Origin: an uncultured Bacteroidales bacterium
GTDB taxonomy: Bacteria; Bacteroidota; Bacteroidia; Bacteroidales; VadinHA17
DNA: 64,000 nt
Reading direction: 5' to 3'
NCBI GenBank assembly: GCA_963765005.1
Contig: CAVXUP010000002.1
Location: 279,607 to 343,606, forward strand
Shown here: positions 39,060 to 49,720 of the stretch, one piece after another
Layout of the letters: the number at the start of each line of letters is the position of its first letter
Numbering within the stretch: position 1 is the stretch's first letter
Made by a program: the position numbers and the translations under genes
Notes under the pieces: model-generated
What the model saw: the letters and a program-made list of their open reading frames with translations, nothing else
Told to the model about the DNA's origin: nothing
Databases searched by the model: none

Positions 39060-39122
39060 CTAAATCACAGCTTCGTTTGATGTGCTGCGCCAAGACCAGT
39101 TATGTGACATTTCTATTCTCAT
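39060..39122 (-). CDS. Candidate Trp leader peptide MRIEMSHNWSWRSTSNEAVI (or MSHNWSWRSTSNEAVI from the second ATG)
   Basis: Hand-translated minus-strand mini-ORF with two Trp codons (tgg tct tgg). It lies between a promoter-like motif and the terminator hairpin upstream of trpB2. Confidence 0.55.
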   Translation of the reverse strand: MRIEMSHNWSWRSTSNEAVI

Positions 39123-39341: not shown

Positions 39342-40580
39342 TCACCGCCCCAGCGACCTCATATCGTCAAAGAATCCCGGATACGATTTTGCAACGCAGT
39401 GCGAATCCCTGATATGGACTTTTCCGCTTGCCCCCAGGGCAGCAACCGCTGTTGCCATGGCTATACGATGATCTTCATGCGATTCAACATGAGCACCAGA
39501 AGGCTTGCCGCCAGTCACATACATTACATCGCCGTTTACTTCAACCTTTATATTCATCTTACCGAACTCATTCATAAGTGTCGCAGCCCTGTCGCTCTCT
39601 TTATGGGCAAGTCGCGATACACCAGTTATTGAGGATACTCCATTGCAATAAGCGGCAAGTGCGACAAGAGGCGGGAAGAGGTCGGGTGACTCGGTTGCAT
39701 CAAATTCAAAGGCCTTCAGGTCAGATTTTTTAACATAAATATACTCCTTGCCAGCATCTATTGAAGCCCCTGCACTAAGCAGGGCCTTTAAAATTCCCTT
39801 GTCGCTCTGATTGCTTTCAGAGTGCAGTCTTTCTATTTTCAGATCACCGTTTATTGCTCCGGCCACCAGTAAGAAAGCCGCTCCGCTCCAGTCTCCTTCA
39901 ACAGTATATTCGCAGGGGATATATTTTTGTTTTCCGGGAATAATAAACCTGTCATAACCGTCTCTCTCAATTTTGATTCCAAACGAAGCCAGTATACCGA
40001 GCGTCATGTCGATATAGGGTTTGCTTTTAAGGTTAATGACTTTTACATCTGAATCCTTTGGAGCAACAGGCAGTGCCATAAGAAGTCCTGTAAGAAGCTG
40101 GCTGCTGACCGACCCGTCGATTTCACATTTCCCTCCCTTAAGCGGCCCTTTTATCATCAGAGGTAAAAAACCGTCTGTGGATGTGCATTTTACTCCAAAC
40201 TGTTTAAGTGCATCGCCGATCATGTTCATCGGCCTTTTTCTGAGCGAGTTGGCGCCGGTTATTGTTATCTCTGCAGGATATAGTGCTGCAATAGGAGAGA
40301 ACATGCGGATTGCAAGACCAGATTCGCCGCAATTCAGCTTCGATTCTTTCAGTATGCCAGTCCCCCTGATTTTAAGCTCATGGGCTTCAGGTTTGATAAT
40401 GGCTCCCAGCCCTACAGCTATACTCATGGCAGCAACGGAGTCATCACAGTATGATGGATTATGGATTATTGTCTCTCCGTCGGCAAGCAATGCAGCTGCT
40501 ATTGCTCTTTGTGTCATGCTTTTTGATGTAGGGGCTTTGATTGTCCCTTTTATTTGTGACGGCTCTGCAATTCGTTCCAT
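39342..40580 (-). CDS. aroA: 3-phosphoshikimate 1-carboxyvinyltransferase (EPSP synthase)
   Basis: 412 aa; KSMTQRA, LNCGESGLAIR, RLAHKESDR, DHRIAMA motifs. Confidence 0.9.
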   Translation of the reverse strand: MERIAEPSQIKGTIKAPTSKSMTQRAIAAALLADGETIIHNPSYCDDSVAAMSIAVGLGAIIKPEAHELKIRGTGILKESKLNCGESGLAIRMFSPIAALYPAEITITGANSLRKRPMNMIGDALKQFGVKCTSTDGFLPLMIKGPLKGGKCEIDGSVSSQLLTGLLMALPVAPKDSDVKVINLKSKPYIDMTLGILASFGIKIERDGYDRFIIPGKQKYIPCEYTVEGDWSGAAFLLVAGAINGDLKIERLHSESNQSDKGILKALLSAGASIDAGKEYIYVKKSDLKAFEFDATESPDLFPPLVALAAYCNGVSSITGVSRLAHKESDRAATLMNEFGKMNIKVEVNGDVMYVTGGKPSGAHVESHEDHRIAMATAVAALGASGKVHIRDSHCVAKSYPGFFDDMRSLGR

Positions 40581-40595
40581 AATCTTCTGACGGTT

Positions 40596-41711
40596 TTATT
40601 TTTTCCTGACTTTCTCGTTCACTTCTTCGTTCATGACCTTCATCTGGTGGTTGATTGACTCCTGGTGAATTGCCTTGAAGATTGTATCAATCAGTTCGGC
40701 ACTAAGGCCTTTAGCCTCTCCTCTTACAATCACCTTTTTTATTATTTCATCCCAGCGGGTGCTCTGCAAGATAGTGATATTATTTTCCTTTTTATAACGT
40801 CCGATTGTTTCTGCTACTTTCATTCTCTGTTCCATCAGATCGAGCAGGTGATCGTCGTAAATGTCGATCTGCTGCCGTAATTCTCCAAGTACATCAAGCA
40901 ATCTGGGATCGTTTGTATTCGCATTTCTGTAAATGAGCCTGCTCAGGAGCTCCTTCAGATCATTGGGTGTCAGCTGCTGCGCAGAGTCGCTGAGTGCTTT
41001 TGCAGGGTTGATATGCGACTCTATCATAAGTCCGTCGAAGTTGAGATCCATGGCCTTTTGTGAGATCTCGTGCAGGTATTGCCTTGCACCGGCAATATGA
41101 CTTGGATCGCAGATCATCGGCAGATCAGGGATACGCCGGCGCAATTCAATAGGGAGCTGCCAGTTGGGCTGGTTCCTGTATAGTGTTTTTTCGTACGAGG
41201 AGAAGCCGCGATGTATAGCGCCGATTCGTGTTATACCTGCTTTCGCTATACGTTCAATGGCACCCATCCAGAGTTCAATGTCAGGATTAATCGGATTCTT
41301 AACAAGAACCATAACATCGACCCCGTTAAGCGCATCTGAGATCTCCTGTACTGTGAAAGGATTAACAGATGTTCTGGCGCCTATCCACAAAAGGTCAATC
41401 CCATATTTGAGAGCTTCATAGACGTGCTTCTCGTTCGCAACCTCTGTACCAACAAGCAATCCTGTCTCCTGCTTTACACGCCTGAGCCATTTCAGCCCTT
41501 CGCTTCCGACTCCCTCGAATGAGTTTGGACGGGTCCGGGGCTTCCAGATCCCTGCGCGAAAGATGCTTATTTGATCTATGCTTGCCAGCTGACGGGCTGT
41601 CTCCATAACCTGTTCTTCCGTCTCAGCACTGCAAGGACCTGAGATTAAAAATGGTTTGCCTTTATAGCCTCTCCAGTCCTTAATAAGTGAATTCTCAAGA
41701 TTTAATACCAT
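40596..41711 (-). CDS. Bifunctional 3-deoxy-7-phosphoheptulonate (DAHP) synthase (type I-beta) / chorismate mutase
   Basis: N-terminal KDO8PS-like DAHPS (ISGPCSAE, FRAGIWKPRT, ICDPSH) and a C-terminal AroQ-type CM helix region (LRQQIDIYDDHLLDLMEQRMKVAETIGRYK). Confidence 0.85.
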   Translation of the reverse strand: MVLNLENSLIKDWRGYKGKPFLISGPCSAETEEQVMETARQLASIDQISIFRAGIWKPRTRPNSFEGVGSEGLKWLRRVKQETGLLVGTEVANEKHVYEALKYGIDLLWIGARTSVNPFTVQEISDALNGVDVMVLVKNPINPDIELWMGAIERIAKAGITRIGAIHRGFSSYEKTLYRNQPNWQLPIELRRRIPDLPMICDPSHIAGARQYLHEISQKAMDLNFDGLMIESHINPAKALSDSAQQLTPNDLKELLSRLIYRNANTNDPRLLDVLGELRQQIDIYDDHLLDLMEQRMKVAETIGRYKKENNITILQSTRWDEIIKKVIVRGEAKGLSAELIDTIFKAIHQESINHQMKVMNEEVNEKVRKK

Positions 41712-41744
41712 TATTTTAAATGTTAGTCATTTATAATTTTAGAA

Positions 41745-41869
41745 ACAAGTTTGGAGTGAGCTAGAGTTTGGAGTGAGCTAGAGTTATAAGAAATCTACTA
41801 ATATATTAACTCTAGGCACTCCAAACTCCAAACTCCAAACTTGTTTTTAACTCTAGCTCACTCCAAACT
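41745..41869. repeat. Word-array hairpin from gtttggagtgagctagag (x2) and its complement plus (ctccaaa) x3
   Basis: Read directly. Fills the tyrA to DAHPS/CM spacer. Confidence 0.85.
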
Positions 41870-41870
41870 T

Positions 41871-42716
41871 TTAGTTTAGAATCTTCCTGATCTTATTCGC
41901 CTCCTCCATTAGCTCTTTCAGCCCTTCCATATCTCTTTCAACAATCATTTTTCTGAAAAGGTTCATCTTATCAATATATGTATCCATTACTTCAATTATA
42001 TATTCTGCATTCTCGACAAAGATTGGCGCCCATGTATCGCCGTTACTCTTTGCAAGCCTTACTGTGCTTTCGAAACCACCTCCGGCAAGTGTAAGGATGT
42101 TTTGTTCCTCATGCTCTTTGTCAAGTACACTTAAAGCAAGTGAGAAAGATGTTATATGTGAAATATGTGAAATATACGCAACGTGGATATCGTGATCGCT
42201 CGAGTTCATATACACCTTTTGCATATTCAGCAGGTCAAGCATCTTTTCAACTTTTTCAAGCGCATCGCTGTCGCTGAGCTCTCTGTCGCAGACAATTGCT
42301 CTTTTGTAATCAAAGAGATGTCCTATTGCAGCAAGCGGACCTGAGTATTCCGTACCAGCCATCGGGTGGACTGCAACATATCGGCCCCTGGCTTTATTGC
42401 CCTCTGATGCTTCGGCAATGCTGACCTTTGTTGAGCCCATATCTGTTACAACCTTGCCGGTGCCGGCTATCCTGTCGAGAATGACGGGAAGCAGTCTGCA
42501 GTTTGTATTAACAGGGGCAGAGAGGATAATGAGATCGCTGTTGTCAACTGCATTCTCAAGAGAGTCAATCTCGTCTGCCAGTCCGCAGAGCTTTGCGATG
42601 TTCTGGTGATGGAGGTTTGAGTCAACTCCGATAATGCGGTCTGTAAATCCACGCCTGCGCAGGTCAACAGCCAGCGACCCTCCAATAAGTCCTATACCTA
42701 TTATTGCTATAGTCAT
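41871..42716 (-). CDS. tyrA: Prephenate dehydrogenase
   Basis: N-terminal Rossmann IAIIGIGLIGGSLA; HPMAG motif. Confidence 0.85.
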   Translation of the reverse strand: MTIAIIGIGLIGGSLAVDLRRRGFTDRIIGVDSNLHHQNIAKLCGLADEIDSLENAVDNSDLIILSAPVNTNCRLLPVILDRIAGTGKVVTDMGSTKVSIAEASEGNKARGRYVAVHPMAGTEYSGPLAAIGHLFDYKRAIVCDRELSDSDALEKVEKMLDLLNMQKVYMNSSDHDIHVAYISHISHITSFSLALSVLDKEHEEQNILTLAGGGFESTVRLAKSNGDTWAPIFVENAEYIIEVMDTYIDKMNLFRKMIVERDMEGLKELMEEANKIRKILN

Positions 42717-42744: not shown

Positions 42745-42811
42745 GACCGAAGACCGAAGACCGAAGTCCGAAGTTATTTTTACTTCGGTCTCCCGTCTTC
42801 CGTCTTCTGTC
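42745..42811. repeat. Word-array hairpin (gaccgaag) x4 / (cttcggtc-type) x4; right arm overlaps the aminotransferase 3-prime end
   Basis: gaccgaag accgaag accgaag tccgaag ttattttt acttcgg tctcccg tcttccg tcttctg tc. Confidence 0.85.
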
Positions 42812-43976
42812 TTTTTCCTAAATATTCTTCGAGCCTTGCTTTTGCTTCAAAAAGCCGCTCTTCGTTAGCGCAAAGCGAGATCCTGATATATCTCGCTCCG
42901 TTTTTTCCGAAAATAAATCCGGGTGTTATGAATACGTGCGTTGCCTGCAGGATATCCTCCACAAAACTCTCGCAATCAGTAGTTTTGTCAGTGATCCTTC
43001 CCCATACGAACAAACCTGTCTGTGAAGGGTCAAATCTGCACTCCAGCAGTTCCATAATCTCTTCGACTGTTTTACGTCGTCTGCGATAAACCTCGTTGAC
43101 CGTATCGTACCACGATTCAGGGTTTGCCAGGGCTTCAGCGGCGGCAAGCTGCATGGGAAGAAACATCCCTGAATCCATATTGCTTTTTACCTTAAGAATA
43201 TTCTTAATAAACCCGCTGTCGCCGGCAACCATTCCTACTCTCCATCCTGCCATATTATGCGATTTGCTCAAAGAATTCAGCTCAAGTGCTGTTTCCTTCG
43301 CACCATCAGTCGCAAGCAGGCTGAGATGGTTTTTATTCAGGATGAAGCTATATGGATTATCATTACACAGAAGTATGCCATGTTTTTGGGCAAAAGCGAC
43401 CAGTCTTGTAAAGAGCTTTTGTGAACCGTTTGTACCTGAAGGCATATGAGGATAGTTCACCCACATGAGCTTCACCCTCGAAAGGTCACTGTTCTCAAGT
43501 GCACCAAGGTCGGGAAGCCATCCTCCTTCTTCATTAAGGTCATAGGTCCTTGCCACCCCGCCGACAAGGTTCGTAACCGAAGAATATGTCGGATACCCCG
43601 GATCAGGAATGAGCACCTCATCGCCCGGATTGACATAAGCCATGCTGATGTGCATAATGCCCTCCTTGCTGCCCATAAGGGGAAGGATCTCTTTGTCAGG
43701 GTCAAGTTCAACATTGAAATATTTGCGGTACCAATCTGCAAAAGCCTTTCTCAGGACCGGAGCCCCTGTATAGCTCTGGTAGCCATGAGTCGTCTTTTTC
43801 CGTGCCTCTTCTGCGAGCGTGGCAACAGTGCTTTCCGAAGGAGCCTGATCGGGACTTCCGATACCAAGGTTGATGATATCCGCGCCAGACCTGCGCATCA
43901 TCTCTATCTGCGCTAATTTCCGTGAGAAGTAGTATTCCTCTACACTGTTTGTGCGTTCTGCCGGTTTAACTTTCAT
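42780..43976 (-). CDS. Class I/II PLP-dependent aminotransferase (aromatic/aspartate type)
   Basis: NSLSKSHNMAGWRVG (PLP-Lys motif) and NPGDEVLIPDPGYP. The last ~10 codons (KRQKTEDGRPK) lie inside the ccgaaga hairpin arm. Confidence 0.85.
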   Translation of the reverse strand: MKVKPAERTNSVEEYYFSRKLAQIEMMRRSGADIINLGIGSPDQAPSESTVATLAEEARKKTTHGYQSYTGAPVLRKAFADWYRKYFNVELDPDKEILPLMGSKEGIMHISMAYVNPGDEVLIPDPGYPTYSSVTNLVGGVARTYDLNEEGGWLPDLGALENSDLSRVKLMWVNYPHMPSGTNGSQKLFTRLVAFAQKHGILLCNDNPYSFILNKNHLSLLATDGAKETALELNSLSKSHNMAGWRVGMVAGDSGFIKNILKVKSNMDSGMFLPMQLAAAEALANPESWYDTVNEVYRRRRKTVEEIMELLECRFDPSQTGLFVWGRITDKTTDCESFVEDILQATHVFITPGFIFGKNGARYIRISLCANEERLFEAKARLEEYLGKRQKTEDGRPK

Positions 43977-44029: not shown

Positions 44030-44804
44030 TTACTTAATGCCCGTCTTATCACGTCTGCGTTTGTGTTCTTTGGGAAGCTCAAGATCGAGATAAAACATAT
44101 ATTCCCACTCCCCGTTCAGTCGCGGGACAGATTGGATTTTTGTAAGGTTTATATCGAGTTCTGCTATCTTGACAAGCACCCTGGCCAGAGATCCGGGTTT
44201 GTGGCCGGTTGAGAAGCAGACTGATACCTTATTGCCCTTGCGATTCCCCATTTCCTCCTTGCCGACAACCATAAAGCGGGTGTAATTCTGCTTGTAGGTT
44301 TCTATACCTTCTGCAAGGATCTCAAGTCCGTATATTTCAGCAGAAATCGCTGAAGCAATTGCAGCGACTCCCTTCTCCCTGGTTTCGCTTATTTCCCTTG
44401 CACTTCCGGCTGTATCATCACTTTCGATAAGGGTTATGCCCGGAAACTGGTTAAGGTATGTCATGCACTGAGCTATGGCTATGGGATGCGATCTTATCTT
44501 ATTTATCTCTGATATGCTCTGTCCGGGCAGAGCCATCAGGTTCTGCCTTATCCGGAGATTGTGCTCACCGAGGATCTTCATACCTGATTCCCTGTAGCAG
44601 AGTATAGTTATACAGTATACTTCCTGAACGGGCATTTTCTATTGCCATTACTGCAAAATCAGCATCACCTGCCTTCAGAGTATTAAGTGTAAGATCAAAT
44701 GTCGAACATGGAACGATATCAATCTCATCATAGCTGAAATACTGCCTTGCAGCAACTTCATGAAAACATCCCTTTTCTCCCTGAATAGCAATTTTCATCT
44801 TCAA
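44030..44804 (-). pseudogene. pheA: Prephenate dehydratase, one +1 frameshift at a G3 run
   Basis: ORFs 44565-44804 and 44030-44635. Joining AIENARSGSILYNYTLLQ to ESGMKILGEH requires removing one G (plus-strand ccc 44590-44592). C-terminal ACT domain present. Confidence 0.8.
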
Positions 44805-44819
44805 AGTAGTATTAAAATG

Positions 44820-44845
44820 GCAAGGGCCCCTCGAGGGACCCTTGC
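44820..44845 (-). terminator. GC-rich hairpin (candidate attenuator) between the Phe/Tyr leader and pheA
   Basis: Minus-strand RNA gcaaggguccc-ucga-ggggcccuugc (11 bp including one G-U) followed by cauuuuaau. It ends 15 nt before the pheA ATG (21-nt stretch from hairpin end to start codon). Confidence 0.5.
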
Positions 44846-44883
44846 TTTACAAAAATTATCTTTATCTGTATACAAAAATCCCT

Positions 44884-44949
44884 CTATCTCTCTTTAAAAT
44901 AAAAAAAGAAGTAAAAATAGGAGTAGAAGTATTTGTACACAATATTCAT
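44884..44949 (-). CDS. Candidate Phe/Tyr leader peptide MNIVYKYFYSYFYFFFYFKER
   Basis: Hand-translated minus-strand mini-ORF of 21 codons, of which 6 are Tyr and 6 are Phe. It lies upstream of the pheA-aminotransferase-tyrA-DAHPS/CM-aroA genes. Confidence 0.6.
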   Translation of the reverse strand: MNIVYKYFYSYFYFFFYFKER

Positions 44950-44970
44950 TATTGTCGCTTTATAGGCTTA

Positions 44971-45000
44971 CAAAAGTAATCTATTTTTTAATAATGCAAA
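44971..45000 (-). promoter_or_regulatory. Bacteroidota-type promoter candidate (TTTG-N18-TACTTTTG) for the Phe/Tyr leader
   Basis: The minus strand reads aTTTGcattattaaaaaatagatTACTTTTGtaagcc, about 20 nt upstream of the leader ATG. Confidence 0.35.
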
Positions 45001-45199: not shown

Positions 45200-47476
45200 A
45201 TGAGAACTACCATAACAATGATTATTGTGTTTGCAATTATTTCCCTTACTTATAATTGCACAACAAAACATCTGCCAATTGATGAACCTGTTGATCATGT
45301 TAATCCATATATGGGGAACATCAGCCACCTGCTTGTACCTACGTTTCCTACAATCCATTTGCCAAACAGCATGTTACGGGTATACCCCGAAAGAAGAGAT
45401 TATACCGGGCTCTTATTGAAAGGTTTGCCTCTCATGGTGACCAGTCATCGCGGTAGTTCAGCATTCAACCTGAGTCCTTTTCAGGGTGATGAGAAGGATA
45501 TTGAGTCAGTTGTTTCCTACAGTTATGATCTGGAGAAAATCAACACCCTATTCATATTCTGTTTACCTCGATGAACAGAAAACCGGCATTAACTTCGCGG
45601 TTTCTCACCAGTCAGCTCTTTATAAGATTACATTACGATAAAGATCAGGAATCATTTCTTATAATAAATTCACGTAACGGAGAGCTTAAATGGGACGGTA
45701 AGGCAATCAGCGGTTACCAGAATCTTGATAACAACACAAAGGTTTATATCTTCCTTGAATCGGATATCAATCCTCTGGGATCAGCAGTATATAAAGATGA
45801 TGCAATTTTAAAAGGTGAAACTGCTGCTGAAGGCAGGAACGCCTGTATCGTCCTGAATTACCCTTCAGATGCCTCAGTAATTAATGTCAGATATGGCATA
45901 TCATTTATTGACGAAGCCCAGGCAAAAAGAAACCTTGAGAGGGAAATAAAGAACTACGACCTGGACCAGTTAATATCACAGGGACGAGAAAAATGGAATG
46001 AAGCTCTTGGAAAAATAAAGGTTTCCGGTGGATCACCTGATGATCTTGCCGTTTTCTACACCTCTCTTTACCGTACCTATGAACGGCCTGTGAATATTAC
46101 CGAGGATGGCAGATACTATAGTGCATTCGACGGGAAAATTCATAATGCTGAAGGAATGCCTTTTTATACCGACGACTGGATCTGGGATACCTATCGTGCA
46201 ACACATCCGCTAAGAGTTTTATGCGAACCGAAGATGGAAGTTGATATTATTAACTCATATCTCCGTATGGCTGAACAGATGCAGGATAACTGGATGCCTA
46301 CTTTTCCTGAGATCACAGGCGACAGCCGCCGGATGAACTCAAATCATGCAGTTGCAACTGTTATTGATGCATATAATAAAGGATTAAGAGGATTTGATCT
46401 TGAAAAAGCTTATGAATCGTGCAGGAAGGGCATTATGGAAAAAACACTGGCCCCATGGTCGGGAAAACCGGCCGGTGAACTTGACAGGTTCTACAGGGAC
46501 CATGGATACATTCCCGCTCTTAAAGAGGATGAAAAAGAGACAATCCCGGAAGTTCATTCCTTCGAAAGAAGACAGCCTGTTGCAGTGACCCTTGGTACAG
46601 CCTACGATGAGTGGTGTCTTGCCCAGATAGCAAGGGAATTGGGAAAAACAGAAGACTATAACTATTTTCTTAAATGCGTCATATAATTATCGTAATCTGT
46701 TTAATGCTGAAACTGATTTCTTTCACCCGAAAGACAGCAAAGGCAATTTCATTATGCCCTTCGACTATAAATTTTCAGGAGGACAGGGTGCCCGGGGTTA
46801 TTATGGTGAGAATAATGCCTGGACCTACCGCTGGGATGTGCAGCATAATATAGCCGATCTTATCAGCCTGATGGGAGGCGATGAGGCATTTCTATCGAAA
46901 CCTCGATGCTACATTTGTTGAACCGCTTGGCAAAAGTAAATTTGAGTTTTATGCCCAGTTGCCTGACCATACAGGTAATGTAGGACAATTCTCTATGGCT
47001 AACGAGCCTTCTCTTCATATTCCATATCTGTATAATTATGCCGGTCAACCATGGAAGACTCAGAAAATGATAAGGGCTCTGCTTACAGTATTGGTTCAGA
47101 AACGATCTGATGGGAGTTCCCGGCGATGAAGATGGAGGCGGGACATCAGCATTTGTGGTCTTTTCACAGCTTGGATTTTACCCTGTAACACCCGGATCGC
47201 CTACATATAATATAGGAGTCACCTGTATTCACAGAATCAGTTGTGAAGATGGATAATGGAAAGGAATTCAGGATAAAGGCAACAAATTGTTCTGACGACA
47301 ATAAGTATATCCAGTCTGCAAAGCTTAACGGGAAAGAGTGGAATAAACCGTGGTTCAGCCATGATGACATTAAGGATGGCGGATTACTTGAACTTGTAAT
47401 GGGAAAGATGGCAAACAGAGACTGGGGAAGCTCACCTGAGTCAGTACCTCCCTCTGCAGAAAGGCTGGAATTTTAA
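45200..47476 (+). pseudogene. GH92 alpha-mannosidase, multiple frameshifts
   Basis: Fragments 45200-45574, 45571-46686, 46881-47129, 47243-47476 plus unlisted pieces. GH92 motifs include SMANEPSLHIPYLYNYAGQPWKTQ and PGDEDGG (hand-translated at ~47120). The first break is an extra A in aaaa at ~45546. Confidence 0.75.
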
Positions 47477-47491
47477 CAAAAATCATTCTAT

Positions 47492-49720
47492 ATGTCTGTT
47501 ATAGTTTTTAAAGGTCTTTTCAGATTTGTTAAATGTAGTATTCTGATACTACTTTGTACTGTGATAAATGAAAGTGCCGGGGCACAGAAGTTAACTCAAT
47601 TTGTTGATCCGTTGATTGGCTCCGGAGGTCACGGCCATGTATTTGTAGGAGCAAGCGTGCCTTTTGGAGCGGTACAACTGGGTCCTAACAATATTTACAA
47701 AGGCTGGGACTGGTGTTCGGGTTACCATTATTCTGATAGTCTGATAATTGGTTTTTCTCATTTGCATCTAAGCGGTACCGGCATTGGTGATCTGGGAGAT
47801 GTATTAATCATGCCGGTAACCGGGGAAGTGAAACTGGATAAAGGCAGGCAGGAATTTCCACACAAAGGTTATTTAACAACTTTTAGCCATAAGAATGAAA
47901 TTGCCAGGCCGGGATATTATTCTGTGAAAATGGATAATGGGGTGGCAGTTGAACTTACAGCCTCCGAGCGTGTTGGTTTTCATCAGTACCGATTCCCTAA
48001 AGGTAAAGAGGCACATTTGATTATAGACCTTAAAGAAGGAATCAACGACAAAAGTACCGACACATATCTGGAACAGACCGATGAATTCACCCTGAAAGGA
48101 TACCGTTTTTCTTCAGGCTGGGCGAAAGGAGCAGCAGGTTTTCTTTGCTATCCGTTCGTCGAAACCCATAAAAAATCTGATTATTTTACAACGAGGATAA
48201 ACCACTTTCAGGCAAAAAAGGCCAGGGGATTTCAGTAAAAGGTGTAATTGGATTTAATGCAGGGGGATTTTGTGCAGTTGAAAGTGGGTATTTCACCTGT
48301 CAGTGCAGAAAATGCACTTGATAACATCAATGCTGAAATTCCGGATTGGAACTTCACTGGAATAGTGAAACAGGCTGATGCAAAATGGAACAAGGAACTT
48401 TCGCGAATTGAAATTGGAACGAAGAACGCAGTCCGATAAACGGATCTTCTACACGGCCCTTTTTCATTCCATGATTCATCCATCGCTGTTCAACGACCAT
48501 AATGGCGATTATCAGGGAGCCGACAATAAAATATACACCAAGACCGGCATTTAAAAACTATTCGGTATTTTCAACCTGGGACACTTACCGGGCAGCACAT
48601 TCGCTATTTACTATTGATTGCTCCTGATACGTGTTAATGATTTTGTCAATAGCATATTAGCAATTAACGACCAGCAAGGTTTTATGCCCATCTGGCATCT
48701 GAATGGATACGAGACCGAATGATGACAGGGATCAGCAGTTTGCAGATTGTTGCAGAAGCATATCTGAAAGGATTTCGGGGATTTGATGCAGAAAGAGCCT
48801 ATCAGGCAATTAAGAAAAACAGCCATGTCTGACTTACGTGGGCTTAACTTTCTGACGGGATTTGAAACCCATTCCCGGTCGGATAAAAACAGTGTGGGCA
48901 GGTCAGTAGCTCCAGACAATGGAATTATCAATTTCTGATGGCAGCATTGCTTTAATGGCAAAGGCTCTAGGGAAAAATGAAGATTCTGCTACTTTAGCAA
49001 ACGGGCAAAAAATTACCAGCTCTTATTACGACCAGTCAGTTGGTTTTTTCAGAGGGATTAAGAGTGACGGAACCCGTAATCCGGAATTTGATGCATTCAA
49101 ATCTACAAAACCCTGGGCTGAGGATTATGCCGAAGGTAATGCCTGGCAGTACTTATGGCTGGCTCCACAGGATGTTTCAGGATTAATAGATTTTTTGGGT
49201 GGGAAAGATATCTTCAATGCAAGATTAGACAGCTTTTTTACACTCACGTCCCAAAGACAATTCAGAAGCATTGGTCGATCTTACAGGTCTTATCGGTCAG
49301 TATGCACATGGCAACGAACCCAGCCACCACATTGCTTATTTGTATGCTTATTCTGGGCAGCAATGGAAAACAGCAGAGAAAGTTCGCTACATCATGAAGG
49401 AGTTTTACCACGATGACCCGGATGGAGTAATTGGAAACGAGGATTGCGGACAGATGTCGGCCTGGTATATTTTTTCATCGCTTGGTTTTTACCCGGTTTT
49501 TCCAGCCTCACAAGATTATGTTTTGGGAAGCCCCTTGTTTGATAAAGCAACAATCAATTTACCCGATGGAAAGAAATTTACAGTTGAGGCGGTAAATAAC
49601 AGCTCCGAAAACATCTATATCCAGCAAGTGGAATTGAATGGACAGAAACTCGCTAAATTCTCTGTCAGTCATAAGGATATTCTAAATGGCGGGGCTTCTG
49701 AAAATAATGATGTGGAATAA
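47492..49720 (+). pseudogene. GH92 alpha-mannosidase (second tandem copy), multiple frameshifts
   Basis: N-terminus FVDPLIGSGGHGHVFVGASVPFGAVQLGPNN and FSHLHLSGTG; C-terminus HGNEPSHHIAYLYAYSGQQWKT and GNEDCGQMSAWY. Breaks include extra Gs at 48128-48129 and at the G5 run 48262-48266. Confidence 0.8.

Follow-up and report, generated by a model that had tools for sequence, protein, structure and literature searches.

In the 64,000-nucleotide (nt) stretch of DNA from an uncultured Bacteroidales bacterium that was analyzed here (hereafter the window, with positions counted from its first letter), a minus-strand cluster of genes for aromatic amino acid synthesis is headed by pheA and preceded by the pheA leader, a short region carrying an open reading frame (ORF) rich in phenylalanine (Phe, F) and tyrosine (Tyr, Y) codons, a GC-rich hairpin, and the other elements of a putative transcription attenuator (Table 1). 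An earlier reading of the letters of this DNA, made without database searches (the sequence-only reading), had described a pheA-tyrA-DAHPS/CM-aroA cluster making both Phe and Tyr. Pfam matches agree with this description and add an aminotransferase gene that had not been listed. Within the cluster, the scan for minus-strand hairpins followed by a T-run returned only a weak 5-bp match at the coding end of pheA, and because no other internal candidate was found, it is plausible that the genes from pheA to aroA constitute a single transcription unit.

The leader ORF contains six Phe codons (four TTT, two TTC) and six Tyr codons (four TAC, two TAT), which together account for 12 of its 21 codons, matching what the sequence-only reading had reported for this ORF. 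The promoter-like motif that it had placed upstream, TTTG-N18-TACTTTTG, was likewise found. The combination of TTTG and TAnnTTTG with an 18-nt spacer is the layout of Bacteroidetes sigma-A promoters, and the sequence suggests a transcription start site (TSS) for the leader transcript near 44966. Downstream of the ORF, a terminator hairpin at 44845-44820 (GCAAGGGTCCC-TCGA-GGGGCCCTTGC in the DNA, followed by CATTTTAAT; GCAAGGGUCCC-UCGA-GGGGCCCUUGC as RNA) was independently picked up by a terminator scan and has an 11-bp stem with eight G-C pairs and a folding free energy (dG) of -21.1 kcal/mol. The position and stem length of this hairpin, and its start 38 nt after the leader stop codon, are those given by the sequence-only reading, but its distance to the pheA ATG (44798-44796) is 21 nt and not the 15 nt given there, which leads to an in-frame TTG at 44804.

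Table 1. Features of the pheA leader and the downstream genes, in window coordinates
Feature	Position	Strand	Details
-33 promoter element, TTTG	44997-45000	minus	Direct sequence reading; followed by an 18-nt spacer and the -7 box
-7 promoter element, TACTTTTG (TAnnTTTG)	44971-44978	minus	Direct sequence reading; 21 nt 5' of the leader ATG
Leader peptide ORF, MNIVYKYFYSYFYFFFYFKER, plus TAG stop	44884-44949	minus	ATG at 44949, TAG at 44886-44884; 21 codons
Regulatory codons	44896-44937	minus	Codons 5-18, of which 12 are Phe/Tyr; contains the run YFYFFFYF; sequence reading
Region 1	44900-44941	minus	Leader-coding strand pairing with region 2 and the K-E-R codons; minimum free energy (MFE) folds
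Region 1, outer helix	44941-44932 with 44876-44867	minus	MFE folds
Region 1, inner helices	44929-44924 with 44886-44881; 44909-44900 with 44896-44887	minus	MFE folds
Region 2, antiterminator 5' strand, GAGGGAUUUUUGU	44872-44884	minus	Initial G doubles as the third base of the TAG stop
Region 3, GCAAGGGUCCCUC	44833-44845	minus	Terminator 5' arm (44845-44835) plus two loop bases; common to antiterminator and terminator
Region 4, terminator 3' arm, GGGGCCCUUGC	44820-44830	minus	Terminator scan
Interrupted U-tract, CAUUUUAAU	44811-44819	minus	UUUU at 44817-44814; direct sequence reading
pheA, prephenate dehydratase with ACT domain	44030-44798	minus	First regulated gene; Pfam PF00800 and PF01842 on two pieces
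Class I/II aminotransferase	42780-43976	minus	Pfam
Prephenate dehydrogenase	41871-42716	minus	Pfam
DAHP synthase fused to chorismate mutase	40596-41711	minus	Pfam
EPSP synthase	39342-40580	minus	Pfam

From its sequence, the pheA leader is predicted to contain the four regions of a classical attenuator, with the alternative pairings 1:2, 2:3, and 3:4. Region 2 (44884-44872) can pair with region 3 (44845-44833) over 13 consecutive bp, four of them G-U, that span the whole 5' arm of the terminator. The duplex has a dG of -18.6 kcal/mol (z = -6.0 versus shuffled sequences), and the complete antiterminator stem-loop one of -20.4 kcal/mol, compared to -21.1 for the terminator. A pairing of only 6 bp (GAGGGA/UCCCUC) had been listed by the sequence-only reading as a weak point, but it is just the first part of this 13-bp helix, which covaries with the terminator. 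RNA folding, which had been proposed as a check, gave the 1:2 helices in the MFE folds. The locus combines a leader ORF rich in Phe and Tyr codons, a terminator, an antiterminator that shares a strand with the terminator, a 1:2 helix, and the spacing described below.

The aromatic run was compared to all other short ORFs (sORFs) of the genome, defined here as ORFs of 8-45 codons that begin with ATG, in any of the six frames of the entire 4.38-Mb assembly (n = 72,337). The pheA leader is the sole sORF with eight F/Y residues in eight consecutive positions. At least six of eight were found in 35 sORFs, and a terminator follows only the pheA leader; no second F/Y leader with a terminator was found among the 72,337 sORFs. 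The pheA leader element is not due to chance. Other F/Y-rich sORFs include three on contig C9, one on the plus strand (398338) and two on the minus strand (267163 and 370917), encoding MFLKSFYFYYYFIIHVVFWR, MRKYASFFYFYALLKNNH, and MTTFFSEFFYFFEIT; no perfect-stem terminator was found near any of these three.

When 40 related genomes were searched with the pheA protein, loci were recovered from 23 species in the same genus and 7 other families of the order, with readable upstream DNA in 6 of these families. Of the 23 same-genus genomes, 22 have an F/Y-rich sORF that starts about 150 nt upstream of pheA, as do all 6 readable families, with peptides such as MHNNSANTFFYFYFYFFGKIE and MNIFGFAYYFFFYFYFTK. 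Sampling across the phylum identified F/Y leaders in two further families of Bacteroidia, one of them with peptides such as MLSNRFYFSNSYYFFWKVERDCCMVI. They were absent from two other sampled Bacteroidia families, in some loci of which a coding region abuts the pheA start, and from the six families sampled outside the class. A scan of named genomes yielded 80 loci, 76 of them with sufficient upstream DNA, from uncultured Bacteroidales, Bacteroides, Parabacteroides, Paludibacteraceae, Lentimicrobium, Saccharicrinis, Draconibacterium, Carboxylicivirga, Salinivirgaceae, and Chitinophagales, among others. An sORF with at least six F/Y residues in eight lies upstream of pheA in 70 of these 76, compared to a maximum of five in eight for the reverse complement of the same loci. 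Relatives of Bacteroides or Parabacteroides strains known from metagenome-assembled genomes (MAGs) carry leaders of the type MNAGLFAYFYFFFFW... or MTRFSFTYYFYYFYF...

Three loci depart from the common arrangement. The lone exception to sORF conservation among the same-genus genomes (L023, genome G022) has an ATG out of frame with a preserved AYYYFYFFKKR-stop run, its in-frame product being MNIIYNLVCRLLLLLLF, which implies a 1-nt insertion or deletion (indel) that is either real or an assembly error in this 86%-complete MAG. In a second (L010, genome G023), the leader stop codon is lost, and the ORF, MNIVYNYFISFYYFYFYFKKRKRDFCIQIN, reads through region 2 to a stop 13 nt short of the terminator stem, where a ribosome that terminates would still mask region 2. 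In a third (L011, genome G015), about 120 extra nt, including the GC-rich palindrome GGGCTCGCGAGCTCG, lie between the attenuator terminator and the start of pheA, and because of this insertion the leader is 271 nt, and not about 150 nt, upstream of pheA.

Altogether, 94 distinct orthologous leaders were collected from Bacteroidales, Flavobacteriaceae, and one MAG labelled Chitinophagales. None of them has fewer than two codons for Phe or fewer than two for Tyr (means of 5.4 and 3.9), and 21 additionally contain Trp codons. Between families the peptide keeps its F/Y composition and spacing alone, and its sequence is not conserved. A TAnnTTTG motif lies within 60 nt upstream in 77 of the 94, compared to about 2% expected by chance, and its distance to the ATG is 18-21 nt in 57 of those 77. 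A perfect-stem, GC-rich terminator with a T-run of at least four follows the sORF in 102 of the 107 leaders analyzed. These comparative data support the sequence-only reading's prediction of an attenuator whose leader would sense both Phe and Tyr, and they bear out its expectation that the ORF would be rich in aromatic codons in orthologous regions.

Complementarity between region 2 and the terminator is also maintained across lineages. A segment complementary to the 5' arm of the leader's own terminator follows the aromatic run in 91 of the 94 leaders (97%; p <= 0.05 versus shuffles), and the median antiterminator (11 bp, -14.35 kcal/mol) is close in stability to the median terminator (-14.45 kcal/mol). 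Differences between lineages in terminator sequence were exploited in a comparison of cognate and non-cognate duplexes that does not depend on an alignment. Among 44 distinct terminator cores, region 2 pairs with its own arm 5.1 kcal/mol better than with the arms of other lineages (Wilcoxon p = 6e-13), and the same comparison for 1:2 pairing gave a ddG of -4.3 kcal/mol (p = 4e-9).

Within the genus, pairing was evaluated on a MAFFT alignment of 43 genus-level sequences (A3). A3 aligns poorly in the loop and 3' arm of the terminator; terminator pairs were therefore not counted on it, and terminators were identified sequence by sequence. The outer 1:2 helix is 86% paired, with four pairs changed on both sides, mostly from UA to CG (11 sequences) and from GC to AU (4 sequences), and the three-helix structure as a whole has a covariation score above those of all 500 shuffles. 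The outer helix accounts for the nucleotide-level conservation of the N-terminus of the peptide (MNIVY).

The position of region 2 relative to the aromatic codons is similarly constrained. In 74 of the 94 leaders, 10-14 nt (mode 12) separate its start from the last aromatic codon, and in 46 of the 94 it follows the stop codon with a gap of 0 or 1 nt. The consequences of this spacing were modelled by masking the RNA from 18 nt before to 12 nt after the first base of the codon in the ribosomal A site, a footprint size taken from general knowledge of ribosome toeprints, and folding the nascent RNA that ends at region 3. With the A site at any of codons 5-18, which include all twelve F/Y codons, none of the 13 bases of region 2 is masked, and the modelled antiterminator probability is 0.98-0.99. 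It falls to 0.84 at K19 (2 bases masked), 0.50 at E20 (5 bases), 0.30 at R21 (8 bases), and 0.06 at the stop codon (11 bases), indicating that the last Phe codon is the final stall position that still permits antitermination. The modelled spacing is thus the geometry that attenuation would demand.

Based on these data, we consider the pheA leader to be a classical ribosome-mediated transcription attenuator that answers to the supply of charged tRNA-Phe and tRNA-Tyr and regulates a pheA-aminotransferase-tyrA-DAHPS/CM-aroA operon, and we place the probability of this interpretation at roughly 0.88. Transcription from the TTTG/TAnnTTTG promoter would begin near 44966, and a ribosome would load on the leader AUG at 44949. 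When both Phe and Tyr are plentiful, the ribosome would pass the 12 F/Y codons, reach the UAG at 44886-44884, and cover region 2, so that region 3 would pair with region 4, the terminator would form, and RNA polymerase would stop at 44817-44814, before pheA. When either amino acid is scarce, the ribosome would stall on an F/Y codon (44937-44896), holding region 1 apart and leaving region 2 free to form the 13-bp duplex with newly made region 3, which would block the terminator and allow the operon to be transcribed. If the leader were not translated at all, region 1 would pair with region 2, and the terminator would be expected to form.

Several points weigh against this interpretation, or at least complicate it. 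The full-length leader folds at equilibrium into the terminator at every ribosome position, implying that the switch must be kinetic, as in classical systems; since equilibrium folds of the full leader do not display the switch, the nascent transcript up to region 3 is the informative model. However, in the ribosome-free nascent transcript up to region 3, 2:3 pairing is favored over 1:2, and termination without translation ('superattenuation') would consequently depend on 1:2 forming first. The antiterminator is 88.6% paired in A3 and almost invariant within the genus, and so its support from covariation comes from between-family comparisons only. Moreover, the U-tract is limited to UUUU and interrupted by C, A, and AAU, and intrinsic termination may therefore be inefficient. 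The sequence-only reading had already identified the short U-tract as a weakness, and it is indeed real; the sub-clade with a longer GCAA/UUGC stem has the same 4-U tract, while the terminators of most relatives have U7-U9.

A further difficulty is that the first gene of the proposed operon is frameshifted, with pheA occupying two frames in the assembly (44804-44565 and 44635-44030). The split is caused by a 1-nt (+1) insertion near 44596 (44590-44600), relative to seven relatives, in a non-homopolymer context (CTGCTACAGG) where those relatives carry a CTnAT-CAGG-type sequence. In all relatives pheA is intact, at about 276-280 codons. The frameshift represents either a real pseudogene or an assembly indel. 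Its interpretation is colored by the neighboring plus-strand GH92 region (45200-48238), in which one GH92 gene is in at least four frame-shifted pieces (45200-45574, 45571-46686, 46881-47129, and 47243-47476) and the next GH92 ORF ends after its N-terminal domain. This cluster of frameshifts within about 3 kb suggests either indels of long-read assembly or local gene decay.

The alternative that fares best accepts that the leader senses Phe and Tyr, but assigns the output either to premature termination by Rho or a different factor that targets untranslated leader RNA, or to an effect of the hairpin on translation of pheA or on mRNA stability. The short, interrupted U-tract of this genome and its sub-clade would fit such an output, as would the location of the hairpin only 21 nt from the pheA AUG, given that translation initiation in this phylum favors an unstructured upstream region over a Shine-Dalgarno sequence. 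We nonetheless regard it as improbable, in that most orthologues have canonical GC stems with U7-U9, the start codon lies outside the hairpin, and the antiterminator is complementary to exactly the 5' arm of the terminator and covaries with it, as competition between two hairpins predicts.

Less probable still, and in our estimation very unlikely, is that the element is a stand-alone small gene located beside pheA by coincidence, either a small RNA (sRNA) with its own promoter and terminator or a hydrophobic, aromatic micropeptide that has an independent function. Possession of both a promoter and a terminator is the profile used for calling intergenic sRNAs in Bacteroides thetaiotaomicron, and the pheA leader has a weak, sub-threshold Rfam match to one of these, BTnc231 (RF04180). 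Yet this match scores 20.5 bits (E = 0.27) against a gathering score of 80.4, and no match to BTnc231 was obtained upstream of pheA in 20 other loci, including those of Bacteroides and Parabacteroides. BTnc231, an intergenic sRNA validated by Northern blot, lies at 5,366,995-5,367,200 in B. thetaiotaomicron, a position which, by a rough estimate of gene positions, we take not to be that of the pheA locus. The element, moreover, invariably precedes pheA directly and in the same orientation, its F/Y composition and spacing are conserved across families when its peptide sequence is not, and a micropeptide would leave the antiterminator geometry unexplained. Finally, we give next to no credence to a chance ORF in AT-rich intergenic DNA adjoining the ordinary terminator of an upstream transcript, a reading that can draw on the AT-richness of the region and the frequency of TTT/TAT-type codons in such DNA but is effectively refuted by the comparative data, in which frame and aromatic run are kept over class-level distances while nucleotides change, and which also faces the unique 8/8 run among 72,337 sORFs, the lack of a gene end just upstream on the minus strand, and a nearest minus-strand ORF (45358-45128) that has no Pfam match and is separated from the leader by the promoter.

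A scan of the Rfam leader families, which the sequence-only reading had suggested, returned no family at its gathering score either at the pheA leader or anywhere in the window (Rfam 15), and no Rfam match with E <= 0.01 was found upstream of pheA in 20 diverse orthologous loci. In addition to BTnc231, a sub-threshold match to Phe_leader (RF01859; 20.5 bits, E = 2.3, gathering score 55) was obtained, with no match in the 20 orthologous loci. Both sub-threshold matches are chance.

Among published cases, the closest is found in Flavobacterium psychrophilum, where clues of leader-peptide attenuation were reported upstream of amino-acid operons, including a conserved 5' element before pheA without an Rfam hit (Guérin et al. 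2021, ISME Commun 1:33, PMC9723704). This pheA-aspC3 leader (THC0290_N_0195; Table S7 of that paper), which encodes the peptide MNTNNTFYSNNSFYFYWNIGRDCYMVI, has a mapped TSS and shows condition-dependent read-through in minimal media (PMC9723704). Like the pheA leader described here, it is positioned 5' of a pheA-aminotransferase pair and combines an sORF rich in F/Y(/W) with a GC hairpin and a U-run, and near-identical peptides occur in Flavobacteriaceae-like loci of our collection (family f24, L039-L043), as exemplified by MLSNRFYFSNSYYFFWKVERDCCMVI in L043. It differs in belonging to the order Flavobacteriales and not to an uncultured Bacteroidales genus, and neither the peptide nor the RNA sequences can be aligned; the peptide encoded here is shorter (21 amino acids), richer in F/Y (12/21), and ends 0 nt before region 2. 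The F. psychrophilum element was annotated from sequence and expression profiles and labelled for phenylalanine biosynthesis only, in a paper that does not give an antiterminator, a spacing rule, or a phylogenetic spread. The two elements belong to one continuous family across Bacteroidia, on the basis of synteny, design, and a continuum of intermediates, and not of nucleotide similarity.

The same attenuation logic precedes pheA in Escherichia coli, where the 15-codon pheL leader contains seven Phe codons and 1:2, 2:3, and 3:4 pairings alternate before pheA (pheL-pheA, RF01859). No homology to this leader was detectable (20.5 bits versus a gathering score of 55), and the promoter type differs. 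The E. coli leader senses Phe only, and tyrA is separately controlled by the TyrR repressor; here, by contrast, Phe and Tyr codons are mixed in one leader, and the operon includes the enzymes of both branches together with DAHPS/CM and aroA. A single leader that reads out several amino acids has precedents in E. coli thrL (Thr and Ile) and ilvL (Ile, Leu, and Val), each of which reads two to three amino acids of a branched pathway, with starvation for any one of them relieving termination; these leaders share the multi-amino-acid readout with the pheA leader but involve different amino acids and are found in Proteobacteria. Attenuators outside Proteobacteria were treated by Vitreschak and colleagues in 2004, in a paper whose abstract reportedly mentions Bacteroidetes/Chlorobi. 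To our knowledge, Bacteroid-trp is the only leader-type cis-regulatory RNA of Bacteroidetes in Rfam. It was described upstream of trp genes (RF01692; Weinberg et al. 2010, PMC2864571), and differs from the pheA leader in its amino acid and operon, with no match at the gathering score in the window. Apart from the Flavobacterium annotation, no leader sensing both Phe and Tyr was found in Rfam 15 or in the literature searched.

The mechanism proposed here is a textbook one that leaves concepts unchanged, and it had been predicted before for pheA in a related member of the class; the value of the finding lies in annotation and practical use. The present analysis contributes the antiterminator in its full 13 bp, a 1:2 helix backed by compensatory changes, the spacing rule of about 12 nt, the statistics on lineage-specific complementarity across about 100 leaders, and the taxonomic spread. 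The element has no annotation at present, and with a model based on the approximately 100 collected leaders it could be annotated in much of Bacteroidia. The sharp spacing rule and lineage-specific complementarity also provide a clean, testable model. The finding further predicts that gut and environmental Bacteroidales place Phe and Tyr synthesis under the control of tRNA charging through one mixed-codon leader and not through a TyrR-like repressor. As a broader proposition, to which we assign about even odds, the pheA leaders may constitute a class-wide RNA family of Bacteroidia, absent from Rfam, that operates as a two-input OR gate responding to starvation for Phe or Tyr, with the antiterminator beginning about 12 nt after the last sensing codon. 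If so, the family would offer a compact demonstration of tight transcription-translation coupling in a phylum where translation initiation does not depend on Shine-Dalgarno sequences, as well as a ready-made Phe/Tyr-responsive part for Bacteroides engineering.

Elsewhere in the gene cluster, the 159-nt spacer between the genes for prephenate dehydrogenase and DAHPS/CM (41712-41870, minus strand) forms a long imperfect inverted repeat, the arms of which consist of tandem GTTTGGAGT / ACTCCAAAC units without a U-tract. It is similar to other arm-wise repeated hairpins in the same genome, and may be an element resembling repetitive extragenic palindromes (REP) or miniature inverted-repeat transposable elements (MITE), or else a site of mRNA processing or stability.

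The scan for sORFs followed by a terminator and a downstream gene also identified three further leader-peptide candidates within about 50 kb on the minus strand of contig C2, with sORF starts at 368398 and 356664, both outside the window, and at window position 39122/39110. One encodes MKISLIHIILLLIIARCR and precedes an ilvD-like gene, as read from its N-terminal sequence, making it a candidate Ile/Leu/Val leader; another, MNYTSTHHHHSHTCSQARRM, precedes a hisG-like gene and is a candidate His leader; and the third, MSHNWSWRSTSNEAVI, is a candidate Trp leader before a trpB2-like gene. Taken with the pheA leader, these three candidates suggest that leader-peptide attenuation may be a general strategy for amino-acid operons in this organism.

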